Below, one piece after another: positions 3,166 through 17,292 of a stretch of 64,000 nt of DNA. The DNA lies in assembly GCA_036626195.1 (NCBI GenBank), contig JAZKSH010000001.1, positions 9,334 through 73,333 on the forward strand, in the 5' to 3' direction. The DNA comes from Thermoplasmatota archaeon (lineage in GTDB: Archaea; Thermoplasmatota; Thermoplasmata; Halarchaeoplasmatales; Halarchaeoplasmataceae). Positions within the stretch are counted from its first letter, which is position 1; each line of letters opens with the position of its first letter. The translations under genes and the position numbers were made by a program. Below the pieces are notes generated by a model. It saw only the letters and a program-made list of their open reading frames with translations. It was not told the DNA's origin and searched no databases.

Positions 3166-3408
3166 GTGGTTGACGTTGAAAAAGCGTTGATGGCTATAGA
3201 AGAAAAAAAAAGGTGGGAAAAAAGGGAGGAAGAGATATTAGAGGAGTTAAAGGAAGTTAGGTCTAAGAAGAAAAAGTTGAAAAAAGAGGCTAAAGAATTG
3301 AAAAATAAGATAAACGAGGCTGAGAGTGCTATCAAATCTGTAAATAATAAGAGAAGGGAGGTCCCGAACTTCTCTCTAGACCTAGGCGAGGAAATAAAGA
3401 GGATGTAA
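3166..3408 (+). CDS. Small K/E-rich coiled-coil protein
   Basis: 80-aa ORF, heptad-like charged sequence, immediately downstream of csl4. Confidence 0.3.
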   Translation: MVDVEKALMAIEEKKRWEKREEEILEELKEVRSKKKKLKKEAKELKNKINEAESAIKSVNNKRREVPNFSLDLGEEIKRM

Positions 3409-3429: not shown

Positions 3430-3660
3430 ATGGCTGACAAGGAAGAAAATATCAAACATCTGCGGGAGGAAATCATGAGATATAAGAAAGAGTACTGGAA
3501 AATAAAAGGCAGGATCGAGGAACTGGACCAACAAGAAGAAGATCTAAAGGAAGAGTTGGAAAGAGTAAGAGATCATCTCTCATATTATCAATCACTCGTA
3601 TCTGATATGAAGAAAAAAATGGAGGGAAGAAAAATCGTAGATGTGTTTGAGAAACTCTAA
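3430..3660 (+). CDS. Small coiled-coil protein
   Basis: 76-aa ORF in the same frame as the previous small ORF, separated from it by stop codons. Confidence 0.3.
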   Translation: MADKEENIKHLREEIMRYKKEYWKIKGRIEELDQQEEDLKEELERVRDHLSYYQSLVSDMKKKMEGRKIVDVFEKL

Positions 3661-3835
3661 TCACAGAAAGTTAGCTTTTTAAGTTCATTGAGATCGGCTG
3701 AGAAAATTTAAATATGGAAAGGTTAATAGCGGTCATGTATTCGCTTTATAGAAAACCGCATTGTAGGAGCGTGTTACCATAAAAGCCAAAGGAGAAGTCG
3801 AAGAGATATTTAAGGAATACTGTGATAAAACCGGG

Positions 3836-4171
3836 ATGAAGGCCATTTCATTGACATCCAAGAACGGGGTGCCCATAGCTTTCCATCTGGAAAACGAGGA
3901 AGAAAACGAAAGCTTCAGCACTCTGTCAGCGACTATACTCGGCGCGAGTGAGGTCATCTTTTCAAGTTTTGAAAAGGAAAACCCCGAACTCATCGTGTGT
4001 AATTCTGATGACTCCACCCTTCTTATCAGTGAGGTAGGAACCAATGCAGTTCTCTCAGTACTCGGTGATTCTGATAGGAAGGAAGAGATGATCGAAGATA
4101 TGAAGGAAATGGTTTCTGAAATAGAAACCGCTGAAAAAGGTTCTGAAATGAAAGAGGTGCTTAAAAAATGA
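3836..4171 (+). CDS. Roadblock/LC7 (MglB-like) domain protein
   Basis: The 111-aa alpha-beta pattern (ATILGASE; LLISEVGTNAVLSVLG) is typical of Roadblock/LC7. Its stop overlaps the start of the next gene (ATGA). Confidence 0.6.
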   Translation: MKAISLTSKNGVPIAFHLENEEENESFSTLSATILGASEVIFSSFEKENPELIVCNSDDSTLLISEVGTNAVLSVLGDSDRKEEMIEDMKEMVSEIETAEKGSEMKEVLKK

Positions 4172-5682
4172 AAATGATCAAAAGTATACCACCAGAGATC
4201 AAAGAGTTTTTGGAAAAAGAAGGCGGTTCGTCCGTGTTCTTTGAAGGTTCTTCCGGTACGGGTAAAACGACTATAGCTCTTCAAATAATCGAAGAGCTTG
4301 CCGATCCTGAAAAAAGTTTTTATTTATCTACCCGGGTATCCGACGAAGCACTTTACACCCAGTTCCCATGGCTGGAAGACAAAGAGATGCGTTCTCAGAT
4401 AACTGATGCCAGTAAAGTCTTCCTCGAAACTCTGTATGGAGAAGAAGAGGAAGAAAAGGAACAGGTGATTGACGAGGAGAAAAAGAAGATCAAAGGAGCT
4501 AAGGAATTTTTAGACACGATACGAGAAGAAGGGCCTCCCGAGAACGTTGATAGGACTAGACTAAATCAGCTTGACAAGAGTATACCGGGCTTGGAAAGGA
4601 TCTACGATCGGATAGATAACGTACTTCCAGAACGATCCTTGCTTGTGATAGACAGTATCGAAGGTATCACACATAAGTACGATATAGACATGGAAACCTT
4701 CGTCATGACCATCCAAAAGGACCTTGTGGAAAATTCGAACACCAACTTGATAATGGTATTGGAAAAAGAGGAAGCACCGGACCTCGAATATCTTGGAGAC
4801 GGGGTAGTCCAGATGAACAGATATCAACTTGAGGGTAGAGACGTCCGTACCATAAAGCTGAAAAAACTGAGGGCTATCAGGATCAAGCAGCCTTCCTATC
4901 TTATGTCACTAGAAGGCGGTAGGTTCAAATGCTTTGAACCTTATGAACTGGACATCTCAGGCGGCCATGAATGGAAACCTGTGAAGGCACCGGAAGGGAA
5001 ATACAGCACTGGAACTGAAGATATCGACAGTCTTCTAGATGGCGGATTTGATGCGGGAAGCTACAACATCTTCGAAGTCAAAGAAAACGTCAGTAACGAA
5101 GAGTTCTTTTCGGTAATAAGGCCCATATTCTTGAATTTCCTATCACAGAATAGGGGAATCATAACGGTCCTCTCTGGTGGAACCCATCCTGAAAATCTTA
5201 AAGACGATCTTACAAGGTTCATATCGGAAAACGTTTTCAATGAAAAGTTCCGTATCGTCGACTATTTCTCCTCGAGGACAAACAAACCTTATAAGATGGC
5301 CCTCGCGGGGAAAAACCAGAGTCAATACAGGGAGATCTACAATGAAACGATGAAAGAATTGAGGGGAGACGAAGATCAGGGGATACTGGATTACACCGGT
5401 TTGGACACCATGGAGTACATGCAGGGTGGTGAGGTCGCCGTTAAACAACTTCTGAGCGGCGTAGCTAACACTAAAAATTCTGACGACCTCGGATTGGGGA
5501 TCGTAAAACCGGGCCTCAACCTCTCCCAAGAGATCAAAAATATGGCGGACAATTACTTCGTGATACTAAGTATCAACAAAACGCCCTGCCTGTATGGAGT
5601 GAAACCAAAAACAGGTCTATATGCCATAGTGACAGATGAAGAAAAGGGATTGCCGTATATAAGATTAGATCCAATAGTCTAA
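4168..5682 (+). CDS. KaiC/RecA-superfamily ATPase with tandem KaiC-like domains, the second degenerate
   Basis: Domain 1 has a Walker A motif, GSSGTGKTT. Domain 2 keeps the KaiC-like opening (IDSLLDGGFDAGSYNIF) but lacks a P-loop. Confidence 0.6.
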   Translation: MKMIKSIPPEIKEFLEKEGGSSVFFEGSSGTGKTTIALQIIEELADPEKSFYLSTRVSDEALYTQFPWLEDKEMRSQITDASKVFLETLYGEEEEEKEQVIDEEKKKIKGAKEFLDTIREEGPPENVDRTRLNQLDKSIPGLERIYDRIDNVLPERSLLVIDSIEGITHKYDIDMETFVMTIQKDLVENSNTNLIMVLEKEEAPDLEYLGDGVVQMNRYQLEGRDVRTIKLKKLRAIRIKQPSYLMSLEGGRFKCFEPYELDISGGHEWKPVKAPEGKYSTGTEDIDSLLDGGFDAGSYNIFEVKENVSNEEFFSVIRPIFLNFLSQNRGIITVLSGGTHPENLKDDLTRFISENVFNEKFRIVDYFSSRTNKPYKMALAGKNQSQYREIYNETMKELRGDEDQGILDYTGLDTMEYMQGGEVAVKQLLSGVANTKNSDDLGLGIVKPGLNLSQEIKNMADNYFVILSINKTPCLYGVKPKTGLYAIVTDEEKGLPYIRLDPIV

Positions 5683-9101: not shown

Positions 9102-9635
9102 ATGAAAAGAGGTAAAGCATTTGTATCGACTTTTCTGCTGGCCCTTTTTACGTATCTGTTATTGACATTAGCTGCTGGCCAGTCCTTGGCACAGGAAGCT
9201 CCCTGGAGTCAGATAATTTGGAGTTTTGAAGAAATAGTGATCGGTATCTCGATGAGCTTGATAGCTGCTGCGGTAGCTGATCACATTCTCTGTAGGAAGG
9301 GAGATTTCAGGATGTTGAATCCTATCCGCTGGTTGATAATGTTGGTTTACACGATTCCGCTCTTCATAGAGATGGCAAAGGCGAACTTCGATGTTGCTTA
9401 CAGGGTCATAACGGGCAAGATAGAACCCGGGATTGTAAAGATAGACCCGGGCCTCGAAACGGACCTAGGGATAACCTTCCTGGCAAATTCGATAACCCTA
9501 ACTCCAGGAACTTTGACCGTGGACGTAGACGACGAAAGGAGCGAAATGTACATACACTGGATAAAAGTTGGGGAGGATCCAACTGAAAATATAGCTGGAA
9601 GATTCGTTAGATGGATAAGGAGGTTTGCAGAATGA
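9102..9635 (+). CDS. mbhA: Mbh/Mrp subunit MrpE-like (MbhA)
   Basis: MnhE-like membrane protein. It is the first gene of the 14-gene cluster. Confidence 0.65.
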   Translation: MKRGKAFVSTFLLALFTYLLLTLAAGQSLAQEAPWSQIIWSFEEIVIGISMSLIAAAVADHILCRKGDFRMLNPIRWLIMLVYTIPLFIEMAKANFDVAYRVITGKIEPGIVKIDPGLETDLGITFLANSITLTPGTLTVDVDDERSEMYIHWIKVGEDPTENIAGRFVRWIRRFAE

Positions 9636-9901
9636 TCGATCTTACCACGCTTTTCTACGGTGCGGCACTTCTCTTTGGAATCTCTATCATCGTGTGTGTT
9701 TTCAGGATTTTTTTAGGCCCTACCGCAGCGGATAGAAATGTCGGATTGGACACTATCAACACTCTTGTAGTAGCAATCATGATTACGATGGGTGCTGCGA
9801 TGTGGGAAACGCTTTTCATTGATATAGCCATCGTATACGCCATACTTTCGTTTATAACTACGCTTTTCATCGCCAAATATCTGGAAGGAGGTGTAGATTG
9901 A
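9632..9901 (+). CDS. mbhB: MrpF-like (MbhB)
   Basis: Small three-helix membrane protein with an ATGA overlap onto the previous gene. Confidence 0.6.
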   Translation: MIDLTTLFYGAALLFGISIIVCVFRIFLGPTAADRNVGLDTINTLVVAIMITMGAAMWETLFIDIAIVYAILSFITTLFIAKYLEGGVD

Positions 9902-10330
9902 ATGGCTTTTAGTTGGCCTATCATTTTGATTGTCATACTACTGATCATTGCACAGGTATTCAATGTATTAGGCGCCATAGGCCTACATCGATTTCCCGAC
10001 GTTTATACTAGACTTCACGCCGCCACGAAATGCACTACATTTGGAACCATCTTCGTGACTTTTACCGTCATAGCTTATAGTGTTAGACAGTACATCCTTA
10101 CCGACGAAGGGAAATTCATCAATATGGCCATCCATACTCTGATCGCTTTGATAGCCCTCCTAGCAACGAATCCAACAGGTGCTCACGCCATCGCAAGGGC
10201 CGCCCACAAGATGGGGGTCAAGCCCGAAAAAGCTGTAAAAGACGATCTAAAAGGCGCTGATCTTCACCAGAAAAAAAGGTCGAAGAAGATGATGAAAAAA
10301 AAGGTTGATGAGTCGACGGAGGTGAACTGA
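9902..10330 (+). CDS. mbhC: MrpG-like (MbhC)
   Basis: MnhG signature HRFPDVYTRLHAATK. Confidence 0.65.
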   Translation: MAFSWPIILIVILLIIAQVFNVLGAIGLHRFPDVYTRLHAATKCTTFGTIFVTFTVIAYSVRQYILTDEGKFINMAIHTLIALIALLATNPTGAHAIARAAHKMGVKPEKAVKDDLKGADLHQKKRSKKMMKKKVDESTEVN

Positions 10331-10588
10331 ATGACTTTGATCGTTCAGATAATACAATTCTTATTGTTAATCGGATTGATTATAACGGCCTTAGCGGTTG
10401 TGATGTTCAAGGACCTCATTTCCGCGGCTATCGCTCTTGGGGCGAGTAGTTTACTTTTATCCCTGCAGTTTTACCTGTTGAGAGCCCCCGACGTGGCGAT
10501 CGCTGAAGCCGCAGTGGGTGCAGCACTGACCACCGCCATATTCATATTCGCGATAAAGTCTACAGAAAGAAAGGAGGGATACAGATGA
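10331..10588 (+). CDS. mbhD: MbhD (DUF4040, MrpA C-terminal-like)
   Basis: 85-aa membrane protein in its expected position. Confidence 0.55.
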   Translation: MTLIVQIIQFLLLIGLIITALAVVMFKDLISAAIALGASSLLLSLQFYLLRAPDVAIAEAAVGAALTTAIFIFAIKSTERKEGYR

Positions 10589-10872
10589 GAAAGGCAGTTG
10601 CGCTCATCGCATTCTTCGTAATATTCGCCTTTTTAGTTGTAGGGGTCGTCCAGATGAGACCCTTCGGTGAGCCGGAAAATGAGGAGATGGACGATCACTT
10701 CTTGGGGGATAGCCAGCAAAGACATCAGGTAAATAACGTGGTCACTGCAGTGCTCTTCGATTACAGAGGCCTTGATACGTTGGGAGAAGCTACGATTCTT
10801 TTTTCAGCCGTGTCCGGTGTTTTGACCGTGCTCCGCAAGGTCAAAGATGAAAAAGAGGGGGTGGAAGATTGA
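10585..10872 (+). CDS. mbhE: MbhE-like small membrane subunit
   Basis: 95 aa with one TM helix, overlapping the neighbouring genes. Confidence 0.5.
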   Translation: MRKAVALIAFFVIFAFLVVGVVQMRPFGEPENEEMDDHFLGDSQQRHQVNNVVTAVLFDYRGLDTLGEATILFSAVSGVLTVLRKVKDEKEGVED

Positions 10873-11360
10873 ATTGGGGGATGTCTAGAGTCGTCAGAAC
10901 CGTCGCCGATATCCTTGTAGTCCCTATAATCATATTTGGTATATACTTGGTGCTTCACGGACATCTCACCCCTGGTGGAGGATTTCAAGGTGGTGCGGTT
11001 ATAGCTTCGGCTACCGCTCTTCTAATAATTTCCTACGGATCATTGGGAAAGCACAAGAAAGATCTTTCATCCATGGAAGCGATCGGTTTAACGCTGTTCA
11101 TCCTGATCGCTTTCTTCGGAATCGGGTACACGATGTTCTATAATTACCTAGCCGGTACTGGTGGGATCTTCGGTGGAACGGTCCCGGTGGGGCCAAACCC
11201 CGGATCCATTAATACGGGAGGAACCGTGACGCTCATGAATCTAATGGTCGGAGTAGAAGTCTCCGCAGCCCTCAGCTTGATCCTTTGGATGATGTCCCGA
11301 GAGAGCGGTGTTATGGAACCGATGAAAGAAAGTTCTGATGAAACGGAGGTGGAAGATTGA
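10869..11360 (+). CDS. mbhF: MrpB-like (MbhF)
   Basis: Contains the MnhB-domain GGGFQGG motif. Confidence 0.6.
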   Translation: MNWGMSRVVRTVADILVVPIIIFGIYLVLHGHLTPGGGFQGGAVIASATALLIISYGSLGKHKKDLSSMEAIGLTLFILIAFFGIGYTMFYNYLAGTGGIFGGTVPVGPNPGSINTGGTVTLMNLMVGVEVSAALSLILWMMSRESGVMEPMKESSDETEVED

Positions 11361-11716
11361 CATGGGAGACATTTTTCCTAACGATGCCTTATTTGGCCGT
11401 GGTTATACTTTTCTCCATAGGGCTTTACGTCGTCCTTTTCAAGAAAAATTTGATCAAGATCATCATGGGGATAATGATAATGCAGAACGGCGCTAATCTG
11501 TTCCTAGTCTCTCTAGCCTACAGAGACGGTTACTACGCGCCGATATTCACTAGTGCCGAATCCGCTGATATGGTGATGCCGACTCCTCACGCGCTCACAT
11601 TGACCAGCATCGTGATCGGGTTGGCCACCACAGCTCTCATGCTCTCTTTCACTATAATGATCAAAAGGCACTACGGGAGCATCAACACTGAAGATGTCCG
11701 GAGGTGTAAAGAATGA
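11357..11716 (+). CDS. mbhG: MrpC/NuoK-like (MbhG)
   Basis: 119-aa three-helix membrane protein. Confidence 0.6.
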   Translation: MTWETFFLTMPYLAVVILFSIGLYVVLFKKNLIKIIMGIMIMQNGANLFLVSLAYRDGYYAPIFTSAESADMVMPTPHALTLTSIVIGLATTALMLSFTIMIKRHYGSINTEDVRRCKE

Positions 11717-13251
11717 CATGGGATACTATCGTTACGAGCAGCCCCACGTTCATCTTGGGATTACCCCTTCTCTTCGCATTTTTAACCACTTTAGCGGGAA
11801 AATTCTCCAAGAAGTTAGGGAAGATACTGTTTGGTATAGGGTTACTCCTAACAGCTTTCTTCGTGGGCGTGATGTCCTATCAAGTTCTTACTGTAGACTC
11901 CTGGTTCTATGTCTTTGGAGCCGACCAGCCCACTCCTGAGAATCTACTGTCTTTCTTTAGGATCACTTTTGTTGCTGACGGATTCGCTGTTTTGGCGACC
12001 GTAACGATAGCTATAACTGCCGTGGCCGCAGGGATATATTCCTACAGCTTCATGAAAGGTGAAAGCGGGTTGAATAAGTTCTATACCTTGTTCCTGTTGA
12101 CCCTCGCGGGAGTCAACGGGATGGTGCTGACTGGTGATCTATTCAACCTTTTCGTCTGGTTCGAAGTCACATCGGTGGCGTCTTGTGCCCTTGTCGCGTT
12201 CCAAAACTACAGAGGAAGAAGCATCGAGGCCGCGTTAAAATACATGGTCCTCAGCACTGTGGGAGGTCTATTCGTTTTATTCTCTATCGGTCTATTATAT
12301 GGGCAATATGGTGTGCTGAACTACGCTCTATTGAGAGAAGGTATAACTGGAACTTTCATAGACAAACTCGCCTTGGGAATCTTAGCGGTCGTATTGGCGA
12401 TGAAATCCAGCAGTGCACCGATGCACATGTGGGCACCCGACGCTTACGGAGAAGCGCCGGGTTCCGTTACGCCTTTCATCGCCGTGACGAGCATGGGATC
12501 ACTTTTCGTACTGTTTAGGCTGCTTTTCGGTGTGTTCTCAGTGAGCATCGATCCTGCAGTCTCGGGCTCTATCTTGATTATCCTCGGCGTACTCTCTATG
12601 ATCGTCGGGGTTACGATGGCCCTCGTACAGAGCGATCTGAAACGTTTGATCGCCTACCTTTCAGTTTCACAGATCGGTTATATGATGATGGCCGTTGGTG
12701 TCGGCCTGGCCACTTTGAACACTGGAGACTATGAGAGCTTTGGAGAACTGGCGATGCGTGGTGGGCTTTTCCACATGATAAACGACGGTGTCTACAAGGC
12801 TCTGCTGTTCCTCTCCGCCGTGGCGGTGGTCCATTCTACAGGCATAAGGAGTCTGAACGAGCTCGGCGGAGTCGCCCACCAGATGCCCTACACCACTTTC
12901 TTCTTTTTACTGGGAGGTTTATCCATAGCCGGGATACCTCCACTTTCTGGCTTCAGTTCAAAACTGCTCATATACCAATCTGTATATCGTTACAGTCCCA
13001 TCTTGGCTATCATCGCTTTAGTGGTCAGCATAATCACCCTGGCGATAATCGGAAAGGCATTTTTCAACGCTTTCCTGGGACCAGACCAGGGATTGGTCAA
13101 CAAAAAGGTATCCAAGACCATGCTGCTGGGGATGGGTATTTTGGCCGCAGTTTTGGTAATATTCACCCTGTTCCCGAACCTCGTTGTAACAGAGATCGTC
13201 TCTCCGGCCATCGACGGCTTGATCGGATCCTTTGAAGGGGTGTTACCATGA
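11713..13251 (+). CDS. mbhH: MrpD/NuoN-like proton-translocating antiporter subunit (MbhH)
   Basis: 512 aa and polytopic, with the proton-pumping-membrane-protein fold signature. Confidence 0.75.
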   Translation: MTWDTIVTSSPTFILGLPLLFAFLTTLAGKFSKKLGKILFGIGLLLTAFFVGVMSYQVLTVDSWFYVFGADQPTPENLLSFFRITFVADGFAVLATVTIAITAVAAGIYSYSFMKGESGLNKFYTLFLLTLAGVNGMVLTGDLFNLFVWFEVTSVASCALVAFQNYRGRSIEAALKYMVLSTVGGLFVLFSIGLLYGQYGVLNYALLREGITGTFIDKLALGILAVVLAMKSSSAPMHMWAPDAYGEAPGSVTPFIAVTSMGSLFVLFRLLFGVFSVSIDPAVSGSILIILGVLSMIVGVTMALVQSDLKRLIAYLSVSQIGYMMMAVGVGLATLNTGDYESFGELAMRGGLFHMINDGVYKALLFLSAVAVVHSTGIRSLNELGGVAHQMPYTTFFFLLGGLSIAGIPPLSGFSSKLLIYQSVYRYSPILAIIALVVSIITLAIIGKAFFNAFLGPDQGLVNKKVSKTMLLGMGILAAVLVIFTLFPNLVVTEIVSPAIDGLIGSFEGVLP

Positions 13252-13592
13252 TCGATATAAGTATAGTCCTGGAGAATATGTGGAGTCCCGTCATATTTAT
13301 CTTGGTAGTGCTGGTAAATCTTGCTATAGCATACTGGCTCTACAGGATGGGGAATCCTGAGTACAAGAAGACGGAACACAGTGGAGAGCCTTTCATCTCC
13401 GGTAATCGACCACCTGGAGATGTGAAGAAGATACATGTTGCTGGAGATAACTTGTTCTGGGGATTCCAGGACGCGTTGAAGCGGTACTTCGAACCGCTGA
13501 TTGAGGGACATACGGGAAAGCTCAATGATTACATGTATTGGGTCGTGATCACTTTAGCCGTGGTTTTGGTTTATATCTATCTGGTGGTGTAA
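13248..13592 (+). CDS. mbhI: MbhI small membrane subunit
   Basis: 114 aa, in its expected position. Confidence 0.5.
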   Translation: MIDISIVLENMWSPVIFILVVLVNLAIAYWLYRMGNPEYKKTEHSGEPFISGNRPPGDVKKIHVAGDNLFWGFQDALKRYFEPLIEGHTGKLNDYMYWVVITLAVVLVYIYLVV

Positions 13593-14038
13593 AGATGAAG
13601 TTATCTAAAACTTTCGATAAAGCCCTCTGGGTCTTTCACGTGAACAGCGGTTCATGCAACGGATGCGATATCGAGATAGTCGCAGCCGTAACCCCTAGAT
13701 ATGATACGGAGAGATTCGGAATCAAACTCGTAGGTTCTCCGAGGCACGCCGACGTACTGTTGTTTACGGGTCCAGTCACTAAAAGGATGAAGGACAGGGT
13801 CCTACGAGTTTATGAGCAGACCCCTAATCCAAAGGCTGTACTTGTGATAGGAAATTGTGCAAATACTACCGGGGTTTATTACGACAGCTACGCGGTGGAG
13901 GGCCCTATAGATAGGATACTCCCCGAAGATGCGCACATCATTTACGTTAACGGATGTCCCGTCAGACCGGAGAACGTGATAAACGGCGTAAAAGAAGCCT
14001 GGCTACACCTAGAGAAACTTAGAGGTGATGACAAATGA
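13593..14038 (+). CDS. mbhJ: [NiFe]-hydrogenase small subunit, NuoB-like (MbhJ)
   Basis: CNGCDIE...GNCAN...NGCPVRP, the proximal [4Fe-4S] cysteine pattern of NuoB-type subunits. Confidence 0.8.
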
Positions 14039-14625
14039 ATCAAGAGTTACCGCTCAGCGTCGAAGAAGTCGAAGATCATTTTAAAGAGAAATTGGGGGAG
14101 AACGTCAAGGATAGCGAAAAGGAGGAATTCAAAAAAGGTGTGGAAGAAACCGAAATGAAATGGATATGGATGACCGTTGAAAGAGAAAAATTCAGGGAAG
14201 CGGTCAAAGCTCTAGCGGAACTGCAGATACCACACCTTTCGGTCACTTCCGGTTCGGATATGGGAGAATTCGTTGAACTCATCTATCACTTCCAGATCAA
14301 TTACAGTCATCCAAGCGAGGAGATCTCGGTGAATATAAAAGTCCATCTACCCAAAGATGACCTGACGATCCCGACTATAACGGATATCGTCCCGGGAGCC
14401 TTGACCACGGAGAGAGAAAAACAGGAATTTTTAGGTGTTGAGGTAACAGATATACCCGATTCCCGGAAATTGTGGCTGGATGAAGAATTTCCTGACGACA
14501 GATATCCATGGCGCTGGGATGAAAAGGGGATGGAAGAGATGTCGAGATATGTTCATGATTCCGAGGAGGCGTCTGATAAGCCCACCTCTCAAAAGGCGAA
14601 AGAAAGGAAAGGAGGTGAAGATTGA
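14035..14625 (+). CDS. mbhK: NuoC-like subunit (MbhK)
   Basis: 30-kDa-subunit-like sequence sitting between the NuoB-like and NuoD-like genes. Confidence 0.65.
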   Translation: MNQELPLSVEEVEDHFKEKLGENVKDSEKEEFKKGVEETEMKWIWMTVEREKFREAVKALAELQIPHLSVTSGSDMGEFVELIYHFQINYSHPSEEISVNIKVHLPKDDLTIPTITDIVPGALTTEREKQEFLGVEVTDIPDSRKLWLDEEFPDDRYPWRWDEKGMEEMSRYVHDSEEASDKPTSQKAKERKGGED

Positions 14626-15872
14626 TGGCTGAAGAAGAGGAAACAACCTATGAGGTCCCGATCGGGCCCATACATCCGGCTCTGAAGGAACCCTTCCTGA
14701 TCCAATTCAAATTGGATGGTGAAGAGATAGTCGACGCAGACCCTCATCCAGGGATGAACCACCGTGGGATAGAATTCATGGGGATGCATAGAAATCCGAT
14801 GAAAGTGATACCTCTGTCCGAAAGAATATGCGGTATATGCTCTATAGTACATCAGCACATGTACACCACTGCAACTGAACACGCTGCGGGTATCGTACCC
14901 ACCAATAGATCTAGGTATATCAGGGCAATACTGTGCGAACTGGAGCGAATCCATTCACACATATTATGGGCGGGAGTTGCGGCCCACGAGATCGGTTTCG
15001 ATACCCATTTACATTTCACCTGGAAGATACGGGAGAAAGTGATGGACCTTTTAGAATACATCACTGGAAATCGGGTCAACTATTCGATGTGGACCTTTGG
15101 AGGCGTGAGAAGAGATATAACTGAGGATATGCATCCGAAAATCTTTGAGACGTTGGAGTATTATGAGGAGTTATACGAAAAATTAGAAGACATATTTTTA
15201 AACGACCCGAGCATAAAGATGAGGACTAAAGACGTTGGTATACTCACTAAAGAAGATGCGCTCAAACTCTGTGGTGTCGGTCCCACCGTTCGCGCATCGG
15301 GTGTGAAGAAGGACGTTAGGATAGACCAGCCTTATGCGGCTTATGGGGATTTAGATATAGATTATGTCGTGCCGTCACGGTACGGTTACGAAGACAAGGG
15401 CGACGTTTTCTGTAAAACGCTGGTGAGGTTGAAGGAGGTCCTTCAATCGATCGATATCATAAAACAATGTGTGGAACATATGCCTGAAGGTGAAATAACC
15501 AGCGAACAGAACAAAGCAGCTCTTTTGAACAAGCTGAAGGGGATGGACGGGGAAGGTATAGGGAGGATCGAAGCTCCCCGTGGTGAAGCAATACATTACG
15601 TGAGACTCAAAGGCGGAAAGAAAGAAGTGGATGCCTGGAAAGTGAGAGCCTCAACTTACAACAATCTAGCTACGTACGGACCCATGTTTATGGGCGAGCA
15701 GATAGCTGATATACCTATCATAGCAGCTTCGATAGATCCATGTATAGGATGCATGGACAGAGCGGAGATAACTGATGTAAATACCGGCGAAACTGAATCA
15801 TATTCGAAGGAAGAACTCCATGAATTGTCCGTTAAGAAGACGGAAGAGATAACAGACGGAGGGATAGAATGA
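14622..15872 (+). CDS. mbhL: [NiFe]-hydrogenase large subunit, NuoD-like (MbhL)
   Basis: N-terminal RICGICSIVH and C-terminal DPCIGCMDR are present. All four Ni-Fe ligand cysteines are retained. Confidence 0.8.
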   Translation: MMAEEEETTYEVPIGPIHPALKEPFLIQFKLDGEEIVDADPHPGMNHRGIEFMGMHRNPMKVIPLSERICGICSIVHQHMYTTATEHAAGIVPTNRSRYIRAILCELERIHSHILWAGVAAHEIGFDTHLHFTWKIREKVMDLLEYITGNRVNYSMWTFGGVRRDITEDMHPKIFETLEYYEELYEKLEDIFLNDPSIKMRTKDVGILTKEDALKLCGVGPTVRASGVKKDVRIDQPYAAYGDLDIDYVVPSRYGYEDKGDVFCKTLVRLKEVLQSIDIIKQCVEHMPEGEITSEQNKAALLNKLKGMDGEGIGRIEAPRGEAIHYVRLKGGKKEVDAWKVRASTYNNLATYGPMFMGEQIADIPIIAASIDPCIGCMDRAEITDVNTGETESYSKEELHELSVKKTEEITDGGIE

Positions 15873-16876
15873 ATTTCGTGGTAGACTGGGGGATAAAGTT
15901 CCTTCTGGTCATAGTTATATCTTTGATAGGGATTTTTTTAGGGCTGCTCTATAAGGGATTTGACAGAAAGATTACAGCAATGATGCAGGCGAGGATCGGA
16001 CCGCCGTGGAGGCAGCCTTTCCGTGATGTTAAGAAACTTTTCATGAAAGAGACCATCGTTCCGGACTCCGCCGTACCTTGGCTTTTCCATACCGCACCGA
16101 TCTTCGCCCTAGTTGCTCCTCTAGTGGCTCTAGCTTACTTACCTCTTGGACCCTTTGAGCCCCTGATGGAAGGTTACGGCAACCTGATACTTATTCTTTA
16201 TTTGCTGGCTATCCCCGCTGTTGCCATGGCCATGGGGGGATTGGCTAGTGGGTCGCCCTACGCTACTGTCGGTTCTCAACGTGAACTAGTACTTATGATG
16301 AGCTATGAGCTTCCTCTCGCGATAGCTGCAGTAACGCTGGCATACAATTACAATACGTTTTCCCTAGCGGTCATCTCCTCCGACCCCGTTTGGAATACCG
16401 TGGGCGCGATGGGTATCCTCGGTTTTGCATTGATACTCGCAGCTCTGATCGCCGTGATGCCTGGCGAGTTATCCAAGGTTCCTTTCGATCAGGCGGAAGC
16501 TGAAACGGAACTAGCTGAAGGGCTGTTCGTGGAATATTCCGGTAGAAATCTAGGGGTCTTTTACATAGCAGAAGTCGTTAAGATGATCTTTGTCGGGGCA
16601 TTATTGATCGCTCTATTCTTTCCTTACAACCTTTCAAATTGGTATTCCTTCGGAGGCCCAGAAGTGGTAAACGGTATGTTATTGGGAAACTTGATAGCGG
16701 ACGTACTGTTTTTCTTGCTTAAGTTGTTAGTGATCATATACGTAGGTGTCTCCGTGATAAGAGTCGCTTTTGCTAGGTTCCAGATCAACAAAGCAAGTTA
16801 TTTCTACTGGGTACCGATGACGGTCGTTGGTCTGCTAGGAACGCTTCTTGTAGTATTGGAGAATGGTGGATTATGA
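15869..16876 (+). CDS. mbhM: NuoH-like membrane subunit (MbhM)
   Basis: 335 aa, polytopic. Confidence 0.7.
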   Translation: MNFVVDWGIKFLLVIVISLIGIFLGLLYKGFDRKITAMMQARIGPPWRQPFRDVKKLFMKETIVPDSAVPWLFHTAPIFALVAPLVALAYLPLGPFEPLMEGYGNLILILYLLAIPAVAMAMGGLASGSPYATVGSQRELVLMMSYELPLAIAAVTLAYNYNTFSLAVISSDPVWNTVGAMGILGFALILAALIAVMPGELSKVPFDQAEAETELAEGLFVEYSGRNLGVFYIAEVVKMIFVGALLIALFFPYNLSNWYSFGGPEVVNGMLLGNLIADVLFFLLKLLVIIYVGVSVIRVAFARFQINKASYFYWVPMTVVGLLGTLLVVLENGGL

Positions 16877-16887
16877 GGTGATAAAAA

Positions 16888-17292
16888 ATGCCGACACAAA
16901 CCATCTACACGCTCATCAAGCAGCTCTTAACCGAGAAAGCAACGAATCCTTTCCCTGTAAAGTACACTCCCGACAATATGCACGATGCCGCTGAGTTGAT
17001 AGAAAAAGGAAAGTTGGAAATCAATCCTCCAGTGGAAGTTCCGTCGGATTTTAGAGGAAAGCTGGAGTATGATAAGGAATCCTGTATCGGGTGTAAGTTG
17101 TGCGTAAGAGTTTGCCCGTCCGAAGCCCTGATATTCAAAGAGGATGAGGAGAAAATCAAACATTATGTGGCAAGATGTACCTTCTGCGGTCAATGCGTGA
17201 ACATCTGTCCTCAGAATTGCTTCAAGTTCAGCGAAGAGTTCCTCATAGCAGGTCCGGAAAAAGAATCTGAAGATCTAGTCATAAACCCGTGA
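16888..17292 (+). CDS. mbhN: NuoI-like 2x[4Fe-4S] ferredoxin subunit (MbhN)
   Basis: Two clusters, CIGCKLCVRVCP and CTFCGQCVNICP. Confidence 0.8.
   Translation: MPTQTIYTLIKQLLTEKATNPFPVKYTPDNMHDAAELIEKGKLEINPPVEVPSDFRGKLEYDKESCIGCKLCVRVCPSEALIFKEDEEKIKHYVARCTFCGQCVNICPQNCFKFSEEFLIAGPEKESEDLVINP

Follow-up and report, generated by a model that had tools for sequence, protein, structure and literature searches.

What does a Roadblock/LC7 protein do when the gene that overlaps its own encodes a RecA-fold ATPase? Roadblock dimers are platforms that regulate or read out small GTPases, as MglB and Ragulator do, and the question is raised by a gene pair in a halophilic Thermoplasmatota metagenome-assembled genome (MAG). 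The pair lies within a 64,000-nucleotide stretch of contig JAZKSH010000001.1 that was analysed as a whole and is called the window below (positions are window positions, on the plus strand unless stated otherwise). It consists of a Roadblock gene ending at 4171 and a gene for a 504-residue ATPase at 4168..5682. We found that the ATPase belongs to the GvpD family, that it is built from two KaiC-like domains of which the second has no P-loop, and that its coupling to the Roadblock gene is conserved in many Thermoplasmatota species. Our preferred reading, to which we give a probability of about 0.45, is that the two genes form one transcription unit encoding a two-protein, nucleotide-dependent regulatory switch.

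A sequence-only reading of this region had described a 111-residue Roadblock open reading frame (ORF) at 3836..4171, joined to the ATPase gene by a stop/start overlap, ATGA (4168..4171), in which the ATPase ATG overlaps the Roadblock TGA. Both ORFs, the overlap and the motifs quoted for them are present where that reading placed them. The Roadblock protein had 75 database relatives and the ATPase 334; the best of the latter was an NCBI protein of 100% identity that comes from a Thermoplasmatota MAG, many had E = 0, and the close ones included relatives named Candidatus Natronoplasma and Saliniplasma. Because each has many conserved relatives, both are real genes and not chance ORFs. A Shine-Dalgarno-like GAGGTG (4154..4159), lying within the 3' end of the Roadblock gene and 8 nt before the ATG at 4168, may serve the ATPase gene.

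Conservation of the pairing was examined in one genome per GTDB species. A relative of the ATPase was encoded in 452 stretches, and the best 80 of these, which were examined, were all from Thermoplasmatota, including Methanomassiliicoccales, Proteinoplasmatales SG8-5, Aciduliprofundum and Lutacidiplasma. Species-level loci with at least 420 nt of upstream sequence, 77 in all, were taken as informative. In 58 of the 77, the gene immediately 5' of the ATPase gene, in the same orientation, was a Roadblock ORF. In 44 of these 58 pairs a candidate ATPase start overlapped the Roadblock 3' end, and the overlap was of the 4-nt ATGA type in 23. The pair was still present at ATPase identities as low as about 48%, and at about 52% it remained among entirely different flanking genes. 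The tight coupling that had been read from this one locus is thus a feature conserved across species.

The Roadblock assignment itself was confirmed by profile and by model. When translated from an ATA codon at 3779, the full-length ORF of 130 residues matched Pfam Robl_LC7 (PF03259) with 30.1 bits (cut-off 23) over profile positions 2-90 of 91; the 111-residue ORF reached 22.9 bits, just under the cut-off, with a match beginning at profile position 18. The AlphaFold2 (AF2) model (predicted local distance difference test score, pLDDT, 89.3) showed the alpha-beta-beta-alpha-beta-beta-beta fold expected of Roadblock/LC7 proteins, with the topology a1-b1-b2-a2-b3-b4-b5-a3 and a long C-terminal helix (helices at residues 2-18, 40-63 and 98-129; strands at 22-27, 32-37, 71-75, 79-86 and 90-97). 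The best Roadblock matches in a Foldseek comparison with the PDB were Asgard Roadblock proteins (9jue, 7f8m), MglB (6izw, 3t1s, 1j3w, 6hjm) and LAMTOR2, with template modelling (TM) scores of 0.75-0.83 and identities of 13-23%; the scores against 9jue, 6izw_B, 3t1s and 7f8m were 0.76-0.83. The beta1-beta2 hairpin (S-x-x-G-x-P-I-A) and helix alpha2 (LSATILGASEV) were invariant or nearly so among 32 Roadblock sequences, down to 26% overall identity. In agreement with the sequence-only reading, no small GTPase gene adjoined the pair, either in the window or in three related loci (L001-L003), and the cognate small Ras-like (MglA-like) partner of an MglB-type protein is accordingly missing from these neighbourhoods.

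The Roadblock gene probably begins upstream of the ATG at 3836, at a non-canonical AUA, which gives it the extent 3779..4171. A profile built from homologues matched the stop-to-stop frame from 3782 on, and homology reached upstream to 3779. Changes between 3779 and 3835 relative to the relatives were mostly synonymous, indicating that this segment is translated; in the AF2 model it encodes helix alpha1, which only the longer form contains. An in-frame TAG at 3764-3766, just 5' of the gene, excludes a start further upstream, and no ATG, GTG or TTG lies in frame between this stop and 3836, leaving ATA as the sole near-cognate start. An in-frame GTG or TTG start between 3767 and 3836 was considered and rejected, since none exists; an invariant GTG at 3771-3773 is out of frame. 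Relatives carry ATT or ATC at the equivalent codon, several of them have no ATG equivalent to that at 3836, and the 130-residue NCBI products of two relatives (P0124 and P0135) begin at the codon equivalent to 3779. We also observed that the start site varies among relatives, with ATG or GTG further upstream in some and AT(A/T/C) in others.

A putative Shine-Dalgarno element, AGGAGCGTG (3765..3773), lies 5-9 nt before the ATA. The nucleotides of GGAG-N-GTG (3766-3773) are invariant while the overlapping triplets would change the amino acid (CGT/TGT/AGT), and for that reason this element fits a Shine-Dalgarno sequence better than coding sequence. Further upstream is a promoter-like element (3700..3714), an A-rich stretch resembling a B recognition element followed by the TATA box TTTAAATA (3707-3714). 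GAAA-N-TTTAAATA (3703-3714) was invariant in 12 aligned upstream regions, and the approximately 50 nt after it, the spacer to the Shine-Dalgarno-like element, vary freely. This agreement with the archaeal consensus suggests that the Roadblock-ATPase pair has its own promoter.

We then asked to which family the ATPase belongs. It matched Pfam GvpD_P-loop (PF07088) with 60.7 bits (cut-off 24) over profile positions 1-188 of 189, GvpD_bR2 (PF20440) with 47.2 bits (cut-off 27.9) and the KaiC ATPase family with 32.8 bits (cut-off 26.6). In a tblastn search of plasmids only haloarchaeal gvpD genes were matched, and the Halobacterium gene on pNRC200, part of the gvpA and gvpD-gvpE-F...M cluster, was used as the GvpD reference. 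BLASTP aligned the two proteins over their full length with 25% identity (E = 8e-37), and hhalign aligned 453 columns with a probability of 99.9% (profile 5-510 against GvpD residues 14-491). The P-loop domain has an intact Walker A motif and the C-terminal bR2 domain is collinear to the last GvpD residue. By these matches the ATPase is a member of the known GvpD family, and it is so annotated in NCBI ('gas vesicle protein GvpD P-loop domain-containing protein'). Since the alignment runs from end to end, what the sequence-only reading had described, two KaiC-like domains in tandem with the second inactivated, is the layout of GvpD itself. The wider GvpD-like family comprises 482 clusters at 50% identity (E <= 1e-30) and extends to Theionarchaea and Geothermarchaeales, and the PDB matches contained no solved GvpD structure. 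The sequence-only reading had taken the pair to be of a kind not characterised in archaea, and had allowed that membership of a well-characterised family would overturn this. Part of that has happened, in that the ATPase carries both Pfam domains of a named family, although it is only 25% identical to GvpD and lies outside a gvp cluster.

Genetic work has characterised GvpD as a repressor: it binds the activator GvpE and reduces its level, for which the Walker motif and an Arg-rich region of GvpD are required, and it oligomerises in solution (PMC4390858). In the first Arg-rich region the ATPase stretch LEGRDVRTIKLKKLRAIRI aligns with ERGRTRRQLRLEKLRGVRI of GvpD, R227 and R235 being invariant and R224 nearly so, and this stretch would correspond to the published bR1, which is needed for GvpE breakdown. 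The second Arg-rich region, bR2, lies near the C-terminus and reads RRR in Haloferax mediterranei. This motif is not conserved here: PGLNLSQEIKNMAD, aligned with PGTALRTRADRVAD of GvpD, contains no arginines.

Domain 1 retains the signatures of a nucleotide-binding ATPase. The Walker A motif GSSGTGKTT (residues 27-35; 4246..4272) aligns to the KaiC CI P-loop, and G27, G30, G32, K33, T34 and T35 were invariant in the 28 homologues aligned. The Walker B strand LLVID (residues 158-162; 4639..4653), followed by S-I-E165, aligns to the 'VSIDS' segment of KaiC, with D162, S163 and E165 likewise invariant. A different state appears at the catalytic position: R56-V57 (4333..4338), within an STRV motif that is also present in Halobacterium GvpD, fall at the place of KaiC Glu77-Glu78 in the hhalign comparison and are invariant. 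We regard this apparent replacement of the catalytic Glu-Glu by Arg-Val as a lead and not as an established result. Domain 1 also contains a charged, Glu/Lys-rich insertion (residues 73-135; 4384..4572), modelled with pLDDT below 50 for residues 73-105 and 109-121. Despite this very low model confidence, A111, F114, L115, V127, R129 and L132 within it are invariant, and the insertion is shorter or absent in relatives of about 460 residues and in haloarchaeal GvpD.

Domain 2 (residues 276-504; 4993..5679) was recognised as a KaiC/RadA-like domain without a P-loop from profile matches, hhalign and AF2 secondary structure, which is RecA-like; in Pfam terms it is GvpD_bR2. It opens with the motif DSLLDGGFDAGSYNIF (residues 287-302; 5026-5073), and directly after it EVKENVSNEE (residues 303-312; 5074..5103) aligns to the G-x-x-G-x-G-K-T of KaiC and SSO2452. 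GK[ST] was present at this position in none of the 28 homologues. A profile of domain 2 alone matched the start of KaiC CII, SSO2452, FlaH (almost the entire domain, profile positions 8-195) and RadA/Rad51 with E = 2e-4 to 1e-2, and in it a family 'E-x-G-x-x-V' occupies the place of their P-loop. The motifs GGTHPE, KPGL and CIYGxKPKT are conserved in domain 2. When the two domains were compared with each other by hhalign, a 161-sequence alignment gave a weak, collinear match (203 columns, E = 0.003, probability 10%), and a shallow 28-sequence alignment gave none. In an alignment to KaiC, the family profile runs over the CI-CII boundary, covering late CI and early CII. Furthermore, the top 50 Foldseek matches were all full-length KaiC, with 515-549 aligned columns and a low global TM score, which we attribute to a different domain orientation in the model.

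These profile, hhalign and Foldseek results support the architecture that had been proposed from the sequence, with two KaiC-like domains in tandem and no P-loop in the second. The accompanying term 'pseudo-ATPase module' suits domain 2 and does not suit domain 1, in which Walker A and Walker B are kept. The polarity-type role suggested in the same reading gains no support from these results. The ATPase is nevertheless not a KaiC in the strict sense of two domains that each have Walker A and catalytic glutamates, and no genes for KaiA or for the thioredoxin-fold protein KaiB adjoined it in the window or the loci examined. Nor is it an ArlH/FlaH protein: it has two domains, it scored 21 bits against an NCBIfam FlaH cut-off of 194, and no archaellum genes were linked to the pair in the loci examined.

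The neighbours of the pair in the window are of housekeeping type, namely Csl4, two small coiled-coil ORFs, protein-isoaspartate methyltransferase, phosphopantothenate synthetase, adenosylhomocysteine (AdoHcy) hydrolase and an Mrp/Mbh-type membrane complex. Csl4, the coiled-coil ORFs and the methyltransferase were considered as parts of the module and set aside, their synteny being confined to the closest halophilic clade (32 loci). The two coiled-coil ORFs, at 3166-3408 (80 residues) and 3430-3660 (76 residues), are highly charged and lie between csl4 and the Roadblock gene; they gave only sub-threshold coiled-coil Pfam matches, a weak one to bZIP_1 (E = 0.019) among them, and are kept in 30-31 loci of the halophilic clade, not beyond. 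The long run of membrane-subunit genes at 9102-17292 (plus strand) has the appearance of an Mrp/Mbh-type complex and is unrelated to the pair; Pfam matches in the syntenic relative L003 were MnhE, MrpF, MnhG, MbhD, MbhE, MnhB and a proton-antiporter-like subunit, and the run in the window goes on with additional ORFs. Elsewhere, in one Thermoplasmata genome, a second GvpD-like paralogue in divergent orientation (L038:3347-4942, minus strand) stands directly upstream of the orthologue, in the usual place of the Roadblock gene. The alanyl-tRNA synthetase (AlaRS)-like gene found upstream in another clade, discussed next, ends about 100 nt before the ATPase gene (for example L072:2262-4898) and was named from its N-terminal motifs by eye; it marks a conserved neighbourhood of another kind. 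A defence role is not indicated, PADLOC having given only weak P-loop noise.

Several observations weigh against a dedicated partnership of the two proteins. The Roadblock gene was not adjacent in 19 of the 77 informative loci. Among these is a whole GC-rich Thermoplasmata clade (45-47% identity; L070-L084), in which the AlaRS-like gene is upstream and no Roadblock gene is found there; the Roadblock relatives of some GC-rich Thermoplasmata, which may belong to this same clade, are stand-alone genes. No Roadblock neighbour was seen in four inspected loci of distant GvpD-like proteins (Theionarchaea, Geothermarchaeales and others), and no Roadblock-ATPase fusion among the top 150 family representatives. 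To our knowledge, moreover, all characterised nucleoside triphosphatase (NTPase) partners of Roadblock proteins are small GTPases and not RecA-fold ATPases. Because of these GTPase partners and of a linkage that is not universal, the main rival to a switch is that the two proteins are co-transcribed and functionally independent, the Roadblock protein working in MglB-like fashion with a small Ras/Arf-like GTPase encoded elsewhere and the ATPase acting alone, as GvpD-like proteins of other lineages appear to do. Such independence would account for the clade in which the linkage is broken, for the stand-alone Roadblock relatives and for the distant GvpD-like proteins that have no Roadblock neighbour, and the GTPase regulator MglB is among the best structural matches of the Roadblock model. 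It accords poorly with an adjacency that 58 species-level genomes share, to ATPase identities as low as about 48%, usually with stop/start overlap and with changing flanks, and with the lack of a GTPase gene nearby in the loci examined. On balance we consider independence rather unlikely, although it is the strongest competitor.

Roles in gas-vesicle control, in recombination and in KaiC-style phospho-timing are each unlikely. A KaiC-style autokinase/phosphatase timer, with the Roadblock protein in the role of KaiB, would suit an architecture that is collinear with KaiC across the CI-CII junction, and earlier work has looked for the second component of archaeal KaiC-like ATPases (PMC4858521). 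The equivalent of CII, where KaiC has its kinase site and phospho-sites, is however without a P-loop, the CI Glu-Glu is apparently replaced by Arg-Val, and neither KaiA nor KaiB genes are adjacent, so that a timer seems improbable. At least as improbable is a RadB/Rad55-like recombination mediator with the Roadblock protein as an accessory factor. The NCBI name, both Pfam GvpD domains above cut-off and the full-length collinear alignment to Halobacterium GvpD would point to a true GvpD orthologue that represses gas-vesicle genes. We give this very little credence: sequence identity is low (25%), the 64-kb window contains no GvpA signature, no gvpE-like gene follows the ATPase gene (gvpD-gvpE-F...M being contiguous in pNRC200), the C-terminal Arg-rich bR2 motif is not conserved, and Thermoplasmatota species genomes hold 452 stretches that encode a family member, the genes around them being of housekeeping type where loci were examined.

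How might the two-protein switch that we favour work? The analysis established gene structure, family membership, domain architecture, motif states and a conserved linkage, and the proposal builds on these to suggest how the proteins interact and assemble, how fast ATP is hydrolysed and what the output is. Domain 1 would bind ATP, its Walker A, Walker B and Arg-rich 'finger' stretch being kept, and the apparent Arg-Val in place of a KaiC-type Glu-Glu makes a slow, switch-like turnover probable. Domain 2, having lost nucleotide binding, probably serves as a platform for interaction or oligomerisation, as the strong selection that persists on it suggests. The Roadblock protein would be synthesised in coordination with the ATPase by way of the overlapping stop and start codons and, probably as a dimer, may bind the ATPase and either adjust the nucleotide state of the latter or pass it on to a target, in the manner of MglB with MglA, Ragulator with the Rag GTPases or KaiB with KaiC. 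By analogy with GvpD, the output would lie at the post-translational level, where the abundance or activity of a target protein is set; gas vesicles would not be the object of this control. A bolder form of this proposal, which we hold only tentatively and think doubtful, is that the Roadblock/LC7 protein, as a dimer, is dedicated to a RecA-fold, GvpD-type ATPase of the KaiC family, whose nucleotide state it regulates or reads out. The ancient Roadblock 'NTPase platform' would then, for the first time, be seen at work with a P-loop protein other than a GTPase, and the pair would be a Thermoplasmatota-wide housekeeping switch that sets the level of a regulator.

Makarova, Galperin and Koonin (2017) reportedly discussed KaiC-like ATPases as archaeal signalling hubs, together with inactivated KaiC domains. 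The searchable literature, a scope that does not include their survey, covers the ATPase family and contains no description of its conserved, translationally coupled pairing with a Roadblock protein rather than a GTPase. In an earlier survey, archaeal KaiC-like ATPases were usually without an identifiable second component (PMC4858521). GvpD is the sole studied member of a large archaeal family; a conserved partner in another lineage offers a concrete way into the function of GvpD-type ATPases outside gas vesicles, in a two-protein system open to expression and to tests of binding and ATP turnover. Should the partnership be real, the role of Roadblock domains would extend beyond the regulation of GTPases, and a defined input/output adaptor would be added to the proposed archaeal KaiC-like signalling hubs. 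If it is not, there remains a GvpD-family gene, annotated correctly, next to one for a Roadblock protein.

Compared with known systems, the pair combines features of several. With GvpD the ATPase shares the two-domain layout from end to end, including the P-loop, STRV, LEY(L/I)VDGVV, the Arg-rich stretch before KLRG and the (Y/F)STGxxDLDxxLxGGF that opens domain 2. It differs from GvpD in its identity of only 25%, in the charged insertion of about 60 residues in domain 1, in its location outside a gvp cluster without a gvpE partner, and in having as conserved partner gene an upstream Roadblock gene, whereas that of GvpD is the downstream gvpE. KaiC resembles it in its tandem RecA-like domains, in an alignment that stays collinear from late CI into early CII and as the best full-length Foldseek match, and is unlike it in that domain 2 of the ATPase has no Walker A and the place of the CI Glu-Glu is apparently taken by Arg-Val. 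ArlH/FlaH, SSO2452 and PH0284, in contrast, each have a single KaiC-like domain, and ArlH is found in archaellum operons. On the Roadblock side, the protein has the fold of MglB, Ragulator and Asgard Roadblock proteins at a TM score of about 0.8, with a C-terminal helix as in MglB, to which its sequence identity is 15-17%. As in MglB-MglA and Ragulator-Rag, the Roadblock gene adjoins a gene for a P-loop NTPase that may be its regulatory target; unlike in those systems, this neighbour is a RecA-fold ATPase of the KaiC/GvpD type and not a small TRAFAC GTPase. The KaiC-like signalling hubs reportedly discussed by Makarova, Galperin and Koonin (cited in PMC5847659) are similar to the pair in general idea, which is that an ATPase of the KaiC family goes together with an inactivated KaiC domain and with a small protein encoded next to it.

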